A DNA stretch of 63,923 nt, the filler included, from an uncultured Methanosarcinales archaeon (GTDB taxonomy: Archaea > Nanobdellota > Nanobdellia > Woesearchaeales > CAZKBD01), in assembly GCA_964550945.1 (NCBI GenBank). It is 4 parts of 4 records of this genome, joined end to end, with 100 filler letters (N's around TTAATTAATTAA, not from the genome) between each part and the next. Parts side by side here need not be neighbours in the genome. Positions count along the whole stretch, not along the records: positions 18,413 to 36,593 come from CAZKBD010000032.1; 3 more parts are not named here. One strand, written 5' to 3'. The notes under the pieces are model-generated. The model was not told where the DNA came from, made no database searches, and saw only the letters and a list, made by a program, of their open reading frames with translations. Positions 658-63,747 of the stretch are shown one piece after another. The position numbers were made by a program, and so were the translations under genes. Each line of letters starts with the position of its first letter. Positions within the stretch are counted from its first letter, which is position 1.

Positions 658-791
658 TGCGCCGGCCGGGACTTTCAAAAAAACTACGCTTTTTTGAATG
701 CATCAAACGCAGTTTGATATTTGAACCCGGATACTCAGCTATCCTCTTGGATAATGGAAGGCTGAAGTCATAGCCATTAGACCACCAGCGC
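658..791 (-). tRNA. tRNA-Gly(TCC) with two introns (37/38: 741-754; 59/60: 672-719)
   Basis: Acceptor stem GCGCTGG/CCGGCGC-A, D arm GTCTAATGGCTATGAC, anticodon stem TCAGC/GCTGA with loop CT-TCC-A^A, T arm CCGGG-TTCAAA^T-CCCGG. Both insert junctions form bulge-helix-bulge-like pairings (CTTC/GAGG; TTCA/TGAA). Confidence 0.92.
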
Positions 792-5938: not shown

Positions 5939-7705
5939 ATGAATTCAAAAGAGCTGAAAGAGAGGTATTTCAAATTTTTTAAGGAAAAAAAACATGCGAT
6001 AATTAGTTCTGCATCTTTAATACCTGAGCATGATCCTACTGTTTTGTTTACAACTGCAGGCATGCATCCTTTAGTGCCTTTTTTAATGGGGCAGCCTCAT
6101 CCTTCTGGCAAAAGGCTGGCAAATGTCCAGAAATGCATAAGGACAGGAGACATAGATGAGGTTGGTGATCCTCTGCATCTCACCTTTTTTGAGATGCTTG
6201 GCAATTGGTCATTAGGTGATTATTTTAAGGAAGACGCAATAAGATGGAGCTTTGAATTCTTGACAGACAAAAAATGGTTAGGCTTGGATAAAAATAAGCT
6301 TTCTGTCACATGCTTCGCAGGAGATAAAGATGCACCAAAAGATGATGAAAGTGCAAAGATATGGGAAAGATTAGGCATACCTAAAGAAAGGATATTCTTT
6401 TTGCCGAAAAAAGACAACTGGTGGGGCCCTGCTGGCGCAACAGGCCCTTGCGGCCCTGACACAGAGATGTTTATTGATACAGGAAAAGAAAAATGCAGCA
6501 GCGCCTGCAAACCAGGATGCAGCTGCGGAAAATATTTTGAGATATGGAATGATGTATTTATGCAGTACAATAAAACAAGCGAAGGAAGATATGAGCCATT
6601 GAAACAGAAAAATGTCGATACTGGCATGGGTGTTGAAAGGACAATAGCAATGCTGCAAGGCAAGAAATCAGTCTTTGAGATCGAGGCGTTTGCTTCAATA
6701 ATAGCTGAGATAAAAAAATTGGCCTCAATAAAAGAATATAGCGAAAAAGAACTTAAATCATTAAGGATAATCGCAGATCATCTAAGGGCAGCTGTTTTCA
6801 TATTAGGTGATGAAAACTCGATTGTTCCTTCTAACTTAGACCAAGGGTATATATTGAGAAGGTTCATAAGAAGAGCGATAAGGCATGGGAAACTTATTGG
6901 TATAGATAACGATTTCTGTACAATGATAGCAAAAATAGTGATAAAAATGAATCAAGAAAGTTGGCCAGAATTAAAGAAGAAAGAGCATTTCATATTAGAT
7001 GAGCTAAACAAAGAAGAAGAGAGATTTAGGGCAACATTAGAAAAGGGATTAAAGAAATTTGAGCAGATCGCTACAAAAGACTTGTCAGGCCAAGACGCAT
7101 TCCTTTTATTCCAGAGCTTTGGCTTTCCTATTGAGATAACTCAGGAGCTTGCAAAGGAAAAAGGCCATAATATAGACATTGATGCCTTTTCAAGAGAGTT
7201 TGAAAAGCATCAGGATATTTCAAGGAAAGGGGCAGAGCAGCGCTTCAAAGGAGGATTAGCTGATTCTTCAGAAGGGACAACTAGATTGCATACAGCAACC
7301 CATTTATTGAATCAAGCGCTAAGGGAAGTTTTGGGAAAAAAGGATATTTTTCAGAAAGGTTCTAACATAACCACTGAAAGGCTTAGGTTTGACTTTAACT
7401 TTGACAGGAAATTAACAAATGAGGAGCTTCAGAAAGTTGAAGATTGGGTAAATGAAAGGATAAATGAAAAGCTTGATGTTGTTAGAGAGGAGATGACTGT
7501 TGAAGAGGCCAAGAAAAAAGGGGCGCAAGGCGTTTTTGAGCATAAATATGGAGAAAAGGTTTTTGTTTATACTATTGGAAAAAAGTCAATTGAGATATGC
7601 GGCGGCCCTCATGTTAAGAATACTTCTGAATTAGTGCATTTTAAAATTAAAAAAGAAGAAAGCAGCGCTGCTGGTGTTAGAAGGATTAAGGCTGTTTTGG
7701 AGTAA
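5939..7705 (+). CDS. alaS: Alanine--tRNA ligase (compact form, no C-Ala domain)
   Basis: LFTTAGMHP, QKCIRT, TFFEMLGNWS, GPCGP.TE, EIWNDVFMQY, DTGMGVER; editing motifs HTATH and CGGPH; protein ends at GVRRIKAVLE. Confidence 0.97.
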   Translation: MNSKELKERYFKFFKEKKHAIISSASLIPEHDPTVLFTTAGMHPLVPFLMGQPHPSGKRLANVQKCIRTGDIDEVGDPLHLTFFEMLGNWSLGDYFKEDAIRWSFEFLTDKKWLGLDKNKLSVTCFAGDKDAPKDDESAKIWERLGIPKERIFFLPKKDNWWGPAGATGPCGPDTEMFIDTGKEKCSSACKPGCSCGKYFEIWNDVFMQYNKTSEGRYEPLKQKNVDTGMGVERTIAMLQGKKSVFEIEAFASIIAEIKKLASIKEYSEKELKSLRIIADHLRAAVFILGDENSIVPSNLDQGYILRRFIRRAIRHGKLIGIDNDFCTMIAKIVIKMNQESWPELKKKEHFILDELNKEEERFRATLEKGLKKFEQIATKDLSGQDAFLLFQSFGFPIEITQELAKEKGHNIDIDAFSREFEKHQDISRKGAEQRFKGGLADSSEGTTRLHTATHLLNQALREVLGKKDIFQKGSNITTERLRFDFNFDRKLTNEELQKVEDWVNERINEKLDVVREEMTVEEAKKKGAQGVFEHKYGEKVFVYTIGKKSIEICGGPHVKNTSELVHFKIKKEESSAAGVRRIKAVLE

Positions 7706-29964: not shown

Positions 29965-30077
29965 CTAGGGAATAGAATAAAGTTCTGATTTATAATTCCT
30001 TGCTTTTTTGTTGCAGCTATTGTAAAAATGCAATAGAAAAGTAATTAAATGATAATCCCGTTTCTTGTTCTATCATG

Positions 30078-30229
30078 TGTCAGAAACATATCTCTGAATT
30101 TAAAACTAGCGGACAAGAGTCCACAATCCATAATAGAATGGGCTATGTTTCTGAGCACGTTAAAAACTATCTGATAAAAGGCAATAACTCCAAAATAAAG
30201 GGTCTCCGTAGGGGAGGTAGTTTTTAACG
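30078..30229 (+). other. 152-nt tandem double-hairpin insertion (intron-like or MITE-like)
   Basis: TCAGAAACATA...TATGTTTCTGA and ACGTTAAAAACTATCT...AGGTAGTTTTTAACGT inverted repeats lie between ATG 30075 and the downstream ORF. Confidence 0.7.
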
Positions 30230-30880
30230 TACATTGTAAGGGAAGCTTTTGAAAGATTGTATCCAGACAAAGAGCTGGAGTATGACATCAGATTGAAGTA
30301 CTCTGGAAAGTTCAAGTCTTATAATGCAAATGTAAGGAGGAGCGGGAATAGTCTAGAATTTAACCTTAGCAAGAAATGGAAGAATATCAGCAAAGAAATA
30401 CAGATGGGGTTGATACAGGAGCTTCTTTTAAAGATTTTGAAGGATAAGAAAAAAACGCAGAATATTGACATGTACAATATTTTCATGAAAAAGATACACA
30501 TTGCTGTGCCAAAGACAAAGATCAATCCTGTTCTTGAGGGGTCTTTTGATAGGGTAAATAATGAATATTTTTTTGGGCTTTTGGAAAAAACCAACTTAGT
30601 TTGGGGCCAGAACTCAAGAAGAAAGCTTGGGTCTTATGATTATGGAAGCGATACAATAACCATAAGCACGATATTTGAGAATTGTGATAAAAGGCTGCTT
30701 GATTATGTCATGTACCATGAGATGCTCCATAAAAACCATAAGTTTGACTGCAAGAATGGCAGAAATTACCATCATACAAGATTGTTTAAGAGAAAGGAAA
30801 AAGAGTTTAGAGATAGTGAAGAAATTGAGAAAGATATCAAAGGAATGGTAAGCAAGAGAAGGTTTTTTATTTTAATGTAA
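30230..30880 (+). CDS. SprT/YgjP-like (M48-type) Zn metallopeptidase; probable true start ATG 30075
   Basis: RKLGSY, YVMYHEMLH (HExxH), HTRLF. The frame is open upstream of the TTG at 30257 (YIVREAFERLYP) back to TAG 30218. Confidence 0.8.
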   Translation, partial: YIVREAFERLYPDKELEYDIRLKYSGKFKSYNANVRRSGNSLEFNLSKKWKNISKEIQMGLIQELLLKILKDKKKTQNIDMYNIFMKKIHIAVPKTKINPVLEGSFDRVNNEYFFGLLEKTNLVWGQNSRRKLGSYDYGSDTITISTIFENCDKRLLDYVMYHEMLHKNHKFDCKNGRNYHHTRLFKRKEKEFRDSEEIEKDIKGMVSKRRFFILM

Positions 30881-50103: not shown

Positions 50104-50253
50104 ACATCTCGCTTTTTTGATATCTAAATCACCTAAAAAGTGTTTCAACTATCAAATTATAAGTTCTGTCCATTAGCACTGGACATTCACGCGTAGCGCT
50201 TATAAATAGAACCCATTTACATAGTTACAACCAATAAAAGTTTGGTGATTTAA

Positions 50254-50931
50254 ATGATATCAAAAAATTTGGCAAGATGTGTAGCTAAAATAAGTGGAGA
50301 CGGATATTTATATTATAGGTATATCCGCTATAATAACACCTCTAAAGAGCTGTTGGACGAATTCGAGGAGGATATAAAAAAGGAGTTTGGCGACATAAAA
50401 ATAACTAAAGGGATAACAAATACAGGAACTCCATTTCGTCAAGTTCATGGCAAAAGGATAATAACCAAATTTTTAGAATACCTACCTGACTATAGAAGTG
50501 ATTTCATCTGGGTTCCAGATCAAATAAAAGAAAGTACAGACAGTGTTAAACAAGAGTATTTGAGGGCATTATACGACGACGAAGGGTCACCTAGTCTAAG
50601 GTTATTCAATAAAACCAAAGAATGGAAAAGAAACTTAAATCTAACTTCAAACTCAACCAGGCTACTTAAAGATGTAAAAGAGATATTGTCGAATAGTTTT
50701 AGTATCAAAAGCAGTAAGATTTTCAAAAACAAAAATAATGACCATTGTTATGTCCTGAGTATAACCGGCAAAGATAATTTTGTAAGATTTAAGAGGAATG
50801 TGGGGTTTAAGATCCCTCGCAAAAAGGAAAGATTAAACCTAATAATCAAAAGTTATGGAAATACTTTTTCTAGAAATAGAGGAGGATTTAGTAAAATAAA
50901 AGAAAAATTGGACTTAATTTCCCGTTCCTAA
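50254..50931 (+). CDS. Free-standing LAGLIDADG (DOD) homing endonuclease-like protein
   Basis: Two LAGLIDADG-like helices (ARCVAKISGDG; YLRALYDDEGS); no intein splicing residues; own TATA upstream. Confidence 0.85.
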   Translation: MISKNLARCVAKISGDGYLYYRYIRYNNTSKELLDEFEEDIKKEFGDIKITKGITNTGTPFRQVHGKRIITKFLEYLPDYRSDFIWVPDQIKESTDSVKQEYLRALYDDEGSPSLRLFNKTKEWKRNLNLTSNSTRLLKDVKEILSNSFSIKSSKIFKNKNNDHCYVLSITGKDNFVRFKRNVGFKIPRKKERLNLIIKSYGNTFSRNRGGFSKIKEKLDLISRS

Positions 50932-60711: not shown

Positions 60712-62640
60712 CTATTTGAGATTGCTTTCCTTATACTCCTCATAATCCATAACCTCAACATTCCATACATAAGAAATCTCTTCAATGCCATCTGTAACAA
60801 CAACTTCAACTTTTTTATTTCCTAAAGCAGTAAACGTCCTTGCATGTTTTGCAGTGGCCTCAAATTTCTCAAACAGGCCAAAATTCCACAAATAGGTTAA
60901 TTCATCATTATCAGGATCCTCTGCATCAATCAAGAACAAAACAGGATTGTCCTTAAAAACAATAATATTCTGCGAAGGGCTGGCATTAACTATCTCAGGC
61001 TTCCTGTTCACATTGTAAACAGTTATATTAGCATATTGTGTAACATTATTCTGGCCGTCACTTGCCATAAATCCAAATGATAGGGTTTTATTTCCTTCTA
61101 TGCTGCTAACTACATCAAAGCTGGGTTTCCAAATAAACAATCCATTTTCAATAATAGCGTCAAAAGGAACACTAATTCCGGAATAGGCAACATCATCCCC
61201 ATCAGGATCCACAGCTTCAAGCTTAACTTTTACCTCCTCACCTTCTTTAGCCCAAGTTGCAGGAATTGCTTTAAAAATAGGAGCTCTATTAACATCCAGA
61301 ATCACAATTTTAACCTCCTTTTGCGTCTCCAATCTGCCATCAGAAGCAATAACTGTAACGCTATATTCTCCGCTATCATCATAATTTGTTAGATACTTGT
61401 TGCTGTCCATAAATCCCCTATACTTTATTGAACCATCATCCCCATCAGGATCATCCGATTTAGCTCCAACATTTATTTCTTCTCCTTCATTAACTGTTAT
61501 AGTATCAGGAGATTCTATCACAGGAGCCCTGTTTACATCATAAACCGTAATCTTAACATCTCTCTCAATCTCAACATCATTGCTTTTTGCTTTAAATTTA
61601 ATCAAAAAACTTTTTCCTAGGATACTGAACTTGTCCATAACTGTATCCATAAAATCCTCTTTTTTAACAGTATCATAGTTAGTCTGCCAGCTGAAAACAT
61701 TTCCCTGGCGATTAGCTCCTTCAGGCATATTCTCTGCGCTAAATGTAATAGCATCATTGTCAGGATCAGTTGCATTCAGGTAGATAACCACTTTTTGGCC
61801 CTCTTGCATAGCAGCATTAGCTATCTTCTGGAAATGCAAAGGCCTGTCTTTCTTTTTTACCGCTATCTTAATATCTCTTGAATCTTCAAATCCTTCGCCT
61901 TTTACACTAACTTTGGCATAATAAACTCCATTATCACCATAATCGGTCTGCCAATGATTATCTTGGTTCAATGGTTCTGATAGGGTATAGCTTAGCCCAT
62001 ATACGCTGAAATCAGGCAATTCTAATCTGGCAACCTCAGTCTCAAAAACCTCAACATCCTTTATCTGGCCTAAAATAGAAGACATATCCACATCATTTAC
62101 ATCAACATCCCATTCCTGAGAGATTGAAAGCTCTCCATCACTTATTATAACTTTTATTTTATGCAAGCCAGCATATTCATAGTTTGGCTTGTAAACAAAA
62201 GAGATTCCTTCTCCAACGCTCTTATCATCAACCTTCCATGTATAACTTAAACTATCCTTATTTGGGTCTTCAGCAGCAATATTAAGCTCCAGGCTTTTTC
62301 CTTCATCAACCTCTAATTCGCTGTCCGCTGGGCTAAAACTATTGATTACTGGCCCAACCTCCTTCTTGTTGATCGCAAGTGTAACATCCTGGGAGCTTGA
62401 AAGCTCTCCATCAGAAACAGTGACTGTAATTTTATACTCGCCAGCATCACCATACTTTGTCTGCCACTTTCCATCAGCATCTAAAGGTGGACTGTAGCTG
62501 TAAACAAGCCTGTCAGCATCTAAATCTGTTGCCGTCGGTTTTAAACTGACAAGATCAGTCTCATTATATTCAAGCCTGACAGCTTCAGCTAAGTAAACAT
62601 TGGCGATTACTATCAGTAGTAATAAAATCCCTCTCTTCAT
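60712..62640 (-). CDS. Secreted/surface protein with tandem Ig-like (cadherin/PKD-like) repeats
   Basis: Signal peptide; repeated AxDPDxDxLxY...WQTxYxDAGxY...VSDG...V.VxNVNRxP units. Confidence 0.85.
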   Translation of the reverse strand: MKRGILLLLIVIANVYLAEAVRLEYNETDLVSLKPTATDLDADRLVYSYSPPLDADGKWQTKYGDAGEYKITVTVSDGELSSSQDVTLAINKKEVGPVINSFSPADSELEVDEGKSLELNIAAEDPNKDSLSYTWKVDDKSVGEGISFVYKPNYEYAGLHKIKVIISDGELSISQEWDVDVNDVDMSSILGQIKDVEVFETEVARLELPDFSVYGLSYTLSEPLNQDNHWQTDYGDNGVYYAKVSVKGEGFEDSRDIKIAVKKKDRPLHFQKIANAAMQEGQKVVIYLNATDPDNDAITFSAENMPEGANRQGNVFSWQTNYDTVKKEDFMDTVMDKFSILGKSFLIKFKAKSNDVEIERDVKITVYDVNRAPVIESPDTITVNEGEEINVGAKSDDPDGDDGSIKYRGFMDSNKYLTNYDDSGEYSVTVIASDGRLETQKEVKIVILDVNRAPIFKAIPATWAKEGEEVKVKLEAVDPDGDDVAYSGISVPFDAIIENGLFIWKPSFDVVSSIEGNKTLSFGFMASDGQNNVTQYANITVYNVNRKPEIVNASPSQNIIVFKDNPVLFLIDAEDPDNDELTYLWNFGLFEKFEATAKHARTFTALGNKKVEVVVTDGIEEISYVWNVEVMDYEEYKESNLK

Positions 62641-62661: not shown

Positions 62662-63747
62662 TTAACCTTTAGTGATATCAGCAATTACAGGAGCTCTGTT
62701 GACATTCTCTACAATAACCTTGACATCCTGGCTGACTCCCTCAGTTCCATCGCTGGCTGTAACCTTGATATCATACTCGCCAGCATCATCATATGTTGTA
62801 TCCCAAACCCCATCATCACCAACCGGATCGCTTATTGTGGAAGTTATTGCATCTCCATCTGGGTCAGTTGCCTGAGGGCTAATTTTTACTGTCTCTCCTT
62901 CTTTTACAGTAATATCCTCTATCTTGGCTAATTCAGGTTTTCTGTTGACATTTTCAACGCTGATTGACCATAGTTGTGTTGTTGTTAAAGCGCTGTCTGA
63001 GATATCAAGTTTGACAGTGTGTGATCCAGCATCATCATAAGTGCTTTTATAAGCAAAAGAGTCTGTGCTTGAAACATCAGTTCCATCATACTTCCAGGCA
63101 TAAGTCAAAGGATCGCTGTTTAAATCGCTTGCGCTGACTTTGAAATCTACAGGATCAGTCTCCTTGATTTTTATTGCTGTTGTATCTGGGCTGAATGAGT
63201 CAATCTTAGGCGCTTCATCTTTCTTATTCACTATCAATAAGACATCCTTTGTGCTTGAAAGCTCTCCATCAGAAACAGTGACTGTGATTGTGTACTCGCC
63301 AGCATCACCATACTTTGTCTGCCACTTTCCATCAGCACCTAACGGTGAAGTGTAGGTATAAGCTAATTTATCAGCATCTGGGTCAGAAGCCTTTGGGACC
63401 AAGTTGACCAGATCAGTCTCGCTTGCAATGATTACAATAGCCTTTCCTTCTTGAGCTTCTGCTGCATTTTCCACAACTTCAGTTTCTGTTTTCTCTTCTG
63501 TAACTTCTGTTTTTTCCTCTGTTGCAGGCTCATTGATTGGCGTAGTTTCATTAGCTTCAGGAACTTGTTCAACAATCTCTATTGAAGGCAATGTGTCATT
63601 TGCTTTTTCCTCAATAGGAACATCTCCCAATGATACATAACTTACGTCTTCTCCACCATAGAGATCCTTAATATATTGGCACCCGCCAAAAAGAATAACA
63701 ACTACTAATACCCCTAATAATCTAGCTAAAAACCTCTTTGTAACCAT
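62662..63747 (-). CDS. Lipoprotein with tandem Ig-like repeats
   Basis: Lipobox-like LFGGC, E/T-rich linker, same repeat unit as the neighbouring gene. Confidence 0.85.
   Translation of the reverse strand: MVTKRFLARLLGVLVVVILFGGCQYIKDLYGGEDVSYVSLGDVPIEEKANDTLPSIEIVEQVPEANETTPINEPATEEKTEVTEEKTETEVVENAAEAQEGKAIVIIASETDLVNLVPKASDPDADKLAYTYTSPLGADGKWQTKYGDAGEYTITVTVSDGELSSTKDVLLIVNKKDEAPKIDSFSPDTTAIKIKETDPVDFKVSASDLNSDPLTYAWKYDGTDVSSTDSFAYKSTYDDAGSHTVKLDISDSALTTTQLWSISVENVNRKPELAKIEDITVKEGETVKISPQATDPDGDAITSTISDPVGDDGVWDTTYDDAGEYDIKVTASDGTEGVSQDVKVIVENVNRAPVIADITKG

Follow-up and report, generated by a model that had tools for sequence, protein, structure and literature searches.

A probable mobile double-hairpin repeat of DPANN archaea lies between the start codon and the body of a zinc-protease gene

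The window analysed here, a stretch of 63,923 nt with filler included, consists of four joined contigs from a 1.97-Mb, Woesearchaeota-like genome (G000), and the split gene that concerns us lies on one of them, C32. An ATG at 30075-30077 (plus strand) follows a TATA-like box (ATTAAATG, 30044-30051, plus strand) at a spacing of 23 nt; the same spacing of 23 nt is seen behind the box TTTAAATA of the window ORF at 5939, whose N-terminus we take to be alaS-like, and the TATA-like box at 30044-30051 is, judging from its sequence and this shared spacing, probably part of a leaderless promoter. The frame opened by ATG 30075 comprises 50 codons and stops at 30225-30227, while the protease frame carries a TAG at 30218-30220 and has the TTG at 30257 as its earliest common start codon. 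From 30230 to 30880 (plus strand) extends the intact body, 216 codons long, of a gene that conservation and domain matches identify as a SprT-like/YgjP-like HExxH zinc protease. This gene is present in 54 of the 61 genomes of the order, and its residues H163, E164, L166 and H167 are invariant in 29 sequences. Among these family members, PF10263 is matched by 24/29 and PF01863 by 26/29 (E<=0.1); the window protease itself matches PF01863 only (E 0.008), and the protease shows weak similarity to projannalysin and Spartan. Elsewhere in the window, C75 carries a direct repeat of 114 nt (91%; 62384-62497 and 63242-63355), and a stretch of about 125 nt (50144-50267) recurs on C53 and C99.

Deletion of positions 30078-30229 yields a 217-codon ORF beginning M-Y-I-V-R-E-A-F, and the first 16 residues of the closest homologues, P0020 (78%) and P0021 (74%), are those of the restored ORF; the source names of the homologues are Woesearchaeota. 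In a scan of 108 homologue loci, which covered only codon +3 and upstream, the codon directly preceding the Tyr that corresponds to 30230 is ATG in 53 loci, and an ATG lies within -3 to +1 codons in 95. Since the nearest relatives start with precisely the N-terminus that removal of 30078-30229 gives, we regard ATG 30075 as the ancestral start codon and the 152 nt as inserted; the three bases of this ATG are at the same time the last three of the insert's 5' target. A sequence-only reading of the window had located the TATA-like box, the ATG, both stops, the TTG and two hairpins, and had predicted that removing the hairpins would restore the true N-terminus and that aligned homologues would start at the ancestral Met: all these coordinates proved correct, and the homologues agree with both predictions. 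Gene callers cut at least about 10 residues off the protease (P0017-P0019).

The insert (30078-30229, plus strand) is built of two abutting hairpins and belongs, by its centre GCACG and its 3' end ACG, to what we call the CG subtype. The left hairpin (30078-30157, plus strand) reads TG-TCAGAAA ... TTTCTGA, a bulged G at 30155, and CA, and its variable loop is akin to the loops of other copies; the right hairpin (30158-30229, plus strand) reads CG-TTAAAAACTATCT ... AGGTAGTTTTTAA-CG, with the centre dinucleotide pairing with the terminal dinucleotide. The arms 30080-30090/30144-30154 (11 nt) are 100% complementary and the arms 30157-30172/30215-30230 (16 nt) 94%. As RNA, the segment 30060-30250 folds with -47.4 kcal/mol (z -2.64; 3/200 shuffles equally good), and an Rfam scan of the window gave 0 matches.

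Filled and empty forms of this site coexist as DNA. In the DNA run X5, the two filled junctions are crossed by unitigs that show 0 differences; a single further unitig (depth 2.1) joins 30069 to 30229 via seven letters, restoring ATG-TAC. The flanking unitigs are shared, and the empty allele differs from the window at three of the seven letters before the junction (30070-30076), which disfavours simple skipping of the hairpin by the polymerase; in the filled allele, these letters form part of a 9/10 complementarity to 30129-30138 inside the element. In runs X1 and X3, to which X5 is unrelated by study, single unitigs span the element, and there is no empty-site joint among those listed. A second case is provided by a 152-nt copy at C175:1140-1291 (L259) that frameshifts a RelE-like gene; its intact allele (P0001, 106 aa), identical to both halves, occurs on five ENA contigs, and the truncated product is also found in other public contigs. 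This gene is accessory, as a half-gene query did not find it in 60 relatives, and for two relatives a source names it RelE. Both empty-site pairs have exact boundaries and no duplication, and at the protease gene the insertion falls exactly between ATG and TAC. A palindromic insertion at the DNA level, which the sequence-only reading had kept as its fallback, is thereby supported. This insert and the C175 copy, both of 152 nt and of the CG subtype, are two sense copies that persist while breaking a frame; some public copies, among them L148, L155 and L172, also interrupt a short frame. A further candidate for a split start, L163, is probably not one, as a second ATG follows at codon 10 of the read-through frame, behind a G run.

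That a family of hairpin elements exists had also been supposed, and G000 alone carries 48 complete double-hairpin copies at 46 sites, this insert included and six copies having been entered by hand. They range from 49 to about 210 nt, and their two adjoining hairpins combine fixed bases with variable loop cargo, following the consensus TGTCAGAAA-loop-TTTCTGA, centre GCA(T/C)(G/A)N, TCA(A/G)AAA-loop-TT(T/C)TTGA, then the terminal dinucleotide. The core motif occurs in 12 of the 61 genomes of the order and its reversed control in 0. Public genomes and viral contigs add at least 57 complete double hairpins among at least 120 motif loci listed; all 57 carry archaeal titles (Woesearchaeota, Nanoarchaeia/Nanoarchaeota, Pacearchaeota, Aenigmatarchaeota, unclassified, and 18 reading 'Methanosarcinales', by record titles alone), and viral contigs account for two motif matches and no complete element among the matches listed. 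Copies were found by motif and arm-pairing scripts, so that diverged ones are undercounted. A set of 102 copies was compared, in which boundary miscalls (L147, L160, L230) and false calls (L171 at least) were retained. In 95 of them the centre dinucleotide can form Watson-Crick pairs with the terminal one (TG/CA 74, CG/CG 11, CA/TG 10), and the arms differ between copies by compensated pairs. Stem mismatches are 20 GT versus 18 AC among 2040 positions; this lack of G-U bias is what one would expect of a structure that matters as DNA rather than as one RNA strand. Taken with the filled and empty alleles, these observations make it very probable that the insert is one member of a REP/REPIN/MITE-type family of mobile DNA repeats that occurs in DPANN archaea and is non-autonomous.

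Copies occur in both orientations relative to neighbouring genes, and ORF interiors hold only 3 of the 46 sites versus 76.7% of target-like sites (p 4e-24), a rarity that points to purifying selection. Of the interior copies, those on C20 and C48 are in frame and the one on C175 is not; on C20 (18663-18716 and flanks), two nested 54-nt copies keep the frame of a 423-aa ORF. Nesting, as on C20, C59, C64 and C68, often takes place within hairpin loops or just past the centre, and both nested and tandem copies occur frequently. Two further loci deserve mention: at C83:7005-7078 a solitary right hairpin resembles that of this insert closely, its left half not being recognisable, and in another lineage an independent 262-nt copy (L077) lies in opposite orientation about 9 nt upstream of the intact ATG of the same protease gene.

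The target duplication is 0-1 nt in 91 of the 102 copies and <=3 nt in 101; IS200/IS605 elements likewise insert without target duplication. The 5' target is T-rich, ends in a TRAWA-like sequence and resembles the element's own right end. The pattern T[AG]A[ATC][AG], derived from the same copies in which it was counted, matches the 5' flank in 43/102 copies against 2.1% genome-wide, and the 3' flank in 2/101. Target and element are, moreover, coupled in their final bases (odds ratio 8, p 0.0013, values overstated because the copies are related). A guiding role of the loop finds little reflection in the flanks, with no excess in three of four comparisons (66 copies); the loop against the reverse-complemented 3' flank scored nominally higher (5/300 shuffles, uncorrected), and the 9/10 match of this copy's loop to its 5' flank is seen in 1/66 copies, about as expected by chance.

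The sequence-only reading had favoured a mini-intron, and excision from the mRNA, whether by EndA at a relaxed motif or along some other pathway, with the ATG being rejoined to its ORF, has to be weighed against insertion as DNA; we consider it very unlikely. It would fit the exact restoration of the homologue N-terminus and the undamaged state of so widespread a gene (54/61 genomes), the host encodes EndA (PF01974 at C4) and has at least 15 T-loop introns, and there is the second sense frame-breaking copy at C175. With cuts shifted by 4-5 nt (30081 or 30082), one can draw a helix of four pairs, two of them G-U, next to an exon helix of 2 bp, and a relaxed bulge-helix-bulge (BHB) rule picks 9/101 copies forward versus 0/101 reversed, a difference that probably arises because target and element end are both TTRA-like. 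However, cuts displaced in this way fall within the left stem, without an intron helix, and would place a Cys at position 2. At the exact junctions (30077/30230), only two of the four central BHB pairs form, in agreement with the earlier remark that no canonical BHB could be drawn there, and no same-frame cut pair nearby offers a convincing motif. Furthermore, 43 of the 46 sites lie outside ORF interiors, copies occur in both orientations, the C175 gene is accessory and empty alleles exist as DNA. A routinely spliced element should not avoid genes so strongly, and hence routine splicing is disfavoured; together with the missing BHB, the two orientations, the absence of G-U bias and the empty DNA alleles, this leaves the suggested removal by the tRNA splicing endonuclease unsupported. 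There is a very slim chance that CG-subtype copies, besides being mobile as DNA, are excised from mRNA along a pathway that needs no BHB; if so, they would be mobile archaeal mRNA introns of a new class, and such removal would explain why two 152-nt frame-breaking sense copies persist.

True tRNA introns of this genome look different at their junctions: 13 of 15 T-loop introns give 4/4 central BHB pairs and 13/15 end in YGAAA plus one base (15 of 22 rows were used, seven with alternative boundaries or doubtful status being dropped, and the search required an exon helix). The comparator chosen in the earlier reading, a 48-nt T-loop intron of tRNA-Gly(TCC) at 672-719 (minus strand), has the 4-bp BHB central helix; its two-hairpin layout and some arm letters do recall the insert, but the family centre and ends are not there, and by our tests it is not a member. 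The proposed spread into tRNA genes thus holds for family fragments in introns at most and not for full members, and spread into rRNA was not seen, the rRNA contig C88 having none of the copies listed. Some exchange of sequence between tRNA introns and the repeat may occur, since T-loop introns on C6 and C167 contain, by eye, family-like half hairpins. In general, the T-loop introns of G000 are 15-110 nt long, with diverse hairpins, and occur in at least 15 tRNA genes (C3, C5, C6, C31, C37, C42, C71, C86, C88, C167); ARAGORN alone reported 12 tRNAs in G000 and none in the window, and the T-loop introns were recovered after in-script removal.

How, then, may the repeat move? Guide-directed cleavage of single-stranded DNA at one-sided targets is described, in the excerpts available, for IS200/IS605 and TnpA-REP (PMC8266576). 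We tentatively postulate that the repeat, too, moves as folded single-stranded DNA that an HUH/Y1-type enzyme, supplied in trans, would cut and join, with cleavage on the 3' side of a target that is T-rich, TRAWA-like and an imitation of the element's right end, and with the centre dinucleotide serving as guide. Our searches show that no mobilising enzyme tracks the repeat across the genomes searched. Y1_Tnp was found in 15 of the 61 genomes of the order, including 5 of the 12 genomes with the element, and in none of the element-rich genomes G009, G049 and G057. The TnpA of C153, used as query, matched 12/61 genomes, with close homologues only in G023, G027 and G048. The G000 TnpA is a questionable candidate for the mobiliser: it is of the ordinary IS200 type, and the close homologue for which flanks are available (G027) has different ends; the G000 tnpA copies sit at contig starts. 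IS110 was found in 6/61 genomes of the order and not in G000. RAYT (NF047646) exceeded the cut-off in 0 of 5 genomes, these being incomplete, and the element ends are absent from the 1400 nt inspected at the best RAYT match (L264). As side observations, an IS200 tnpA lies directly upstream of a retroelement-like locus on C153 (L031) and C146 (L032), which comprises a 265-288 aa ORF and an Asn-rich, template-like repeat of its C-terminus, with the N-terminus at the locus edge; we take this locus to be a diversity-generating retroelement and the N-terminus at its edge to be RT-like. Loop cargo with CTAAAG/CTTTAG hairpins (C13:16406, C48:5133, C59:7053; L234) is, by eye, similar to the hairpin upstream of the G027 IS200 tnpA homologue.

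Because no enzyme was found, spread without a dedicated transposase stays a serious rival to trans mobilisation by an HUH/Y1-type enzyme, and we regard it as possible, if doubtful. The repeat could spread by host replication or recombination acting on folded single-stranded DNA, whether by template switching or with the help of a host recombinase, for instance the single Xer-like protein, or else through an RNA copy and a reverse transcriptase. CGTC REPs, according to the excerpted source, are likewise without a dedicated transposase (PMC3733652). In favour of such spread, no transposase family co-occurs with the repeat, nested and tandem copies are frequent, the element centre resembles inverted arms about a 6-bp spacer, and G000 encodes one tyrosine recombinase. 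Such a recombinase, however, is expected to cut at the spacer edge, whereas the junction lies midway along the 4-bp central helix. The one-sided target suits HUH chemistry, the patchy distribution of the repeat (12/61 genomes) is at odds with a host enzyme, which would be common, and the lack of G-U bias argues against selection on an RNA form.

The insertion has created an upstream ORF of 50 codons (30075-30227, plus strand), to which we assign a putative role in expression of the protease. Its TAA overlaps by one base an in-frame ACG (30227-30229, plus strand) that occupies the position of the homologues' Met and is a candidate near-cognate restart codon, and a Shine-Dalgarno-like GGAGGT (30213-30218, plus strand) lies 8 nt before this ACG. 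The duplex with the anti-SD at the 3' end of the genome's 16S rRNA amounts to -11.6 kcal/mol before the ACG versus -4.0 before TTG 30257; in the RNA fold, the right hairpin covers both SD and ACG. This combination is unusual, since an open frame of the uORF type is found in only 3 of 48 copies of >=130 nt and an SD of six or more letters in 4/102. In G000, 206 of 1405 starts have an SD of 5+ nt versus 25 in control windows, and TAATG/TGATG starts number 161. According to excerpts of the respective papers, overlapping stop-start pairs couple translation in Haloferax (PMC6728339), and archaeal start codons are AUG, GUG and UUG, ACG not being among them (PMC7531240). We speculate, post hoc and from a single copy, that a leaderless mRNA might be translated through the uORF, that this translation would melt the right hairpin, and that the ribosome, after stopping at the TAA, could restart on the overlapping ACG behind GGAGGT, giving a protease of normal length at reduced yield. 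If true, reinitiation at ACG would be unusual for an archaeon.

Several other outcomes compete with reinitiation at the ACG. The filled form may be a null or near-null allele that is still unpurged, which we think somewhat unlikely. A -1 slip on the T run 30221-30225 before the stop is an improbable route, and it is just as improbable that translation starts at TTG 30257, at the price of losing the conserved first ten residues. Rescue of the gene by splicing is very hard to credit. Finally, the hairpins could be a domesticated regulatory leader, attenuator-like or riboswitch-like, or the ACG could stem from simple mutation of an ATG, the upstream ATG being there by chance. The burial of SD and ACG in the right hairpin and the open uORF would suit a leader, but Rfam has no match in the window, the motif scan flagged among the 108 other homologue loci only L077, where the copy precedes an intact ATG, and the empty allele in the same population contradicts it; we consider this pair of readings extremely unlikely.

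Collectively, our results remove a candidate from the archaeal mRNA introns and put in its place a testable mobile palindromic repeat of DPANN archaea. Two pairs of filled and empty sites fix the element boundaries, a target rule is supplied by which the target imitates the end of the element itself and centre, end and target are coupled, and a specific route is proposed by which a near-universal gene may survive an insertion at its start codon.

We found no published description of this double-hairpin repeat in a literature that was largely open-access, and the sources of the following comparisons are available as excerpts. Similarly to REPIN/BIME and RAYT-mobilised REP sequences, the repeat comprises short, multi-copy, mostly extragenic hairpin doublets, with population excision footprints, bulged stems and a guide-like choice of the cleavage site (PMC3116915, PMC8266576). 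Unlike REP/REPIN as excerpted there, it has no GTAG tag, its ends being TGTC...GACA/ACG/GATG, and its hairpins abut head to tail around a 5-6 nt centre, whereas a REPIN is one long inverted doublet; its large variable loop cargo, its archaeal hosts and the failure to find a RAYT also set it apart. It shares with the CGTC/TGTC-tagged REPs (Neisseria dRS3, Rickettsia RPE-4/6) outward TGTC ends, no dedicated transposase and some intragenic copies in frame (PMC3733652); TGTC marks the left end and, read on the opposite strand, also the right one in the TG subtype. As far as that excerpt describes them, CGTC REPs have an unpaired tag, stems of 8-9 bp, loops of 4-5 nt and a CCA tail (PMC3733652), a combination not seen in the repeat, whose TGTC lies within the stem, whose terminal dinucleotide covaries with the centre and whose loops differ widely in length and can exceed 100 nt. 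No target duplication, a one-sided 5' target and single-strand hairpins with unpaired bases recall the ends of IS200/IS605, as excerpted (PMC8266576), but tnpA and tnpB are absent between the ends of every copy seen, and the local IS200 ends resemble, by eye, the loop cargo of the repeat and not its frame. With the cbf5 pre-mRNA intron and non-canonical tRNA introns, in the excerpted account, it has in common an interrupted protein gene, exact boundaries and a host with EndA; cbf5 introns, however, have a BHB-like structure, cuts in the bulges and cDNA proof (PMC2738675), whereas the repeat has no BHB, is multi-copy and mostly intergenic, and is polymorphic in DNA. MITEs, in the excerpt of PMC2229807, typically have TA ends and target duplications; the repeat shows neither, and we reject a classical DDE-mobilised MITE on its target-site duplications (>3 nt in 1/102 copies). 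The in-frame copies on C20, C48 and C147 resemble, by description, Rickettsia RPE-1 and the palindromic elements of Methanocaldococcus jannaschii (excerpts of PMC2229807). The repeat appears to work like REPINs and CGTC REPs, and yet we do not file it with either group, because it departs from them in defining tags, geometry or RAYT.
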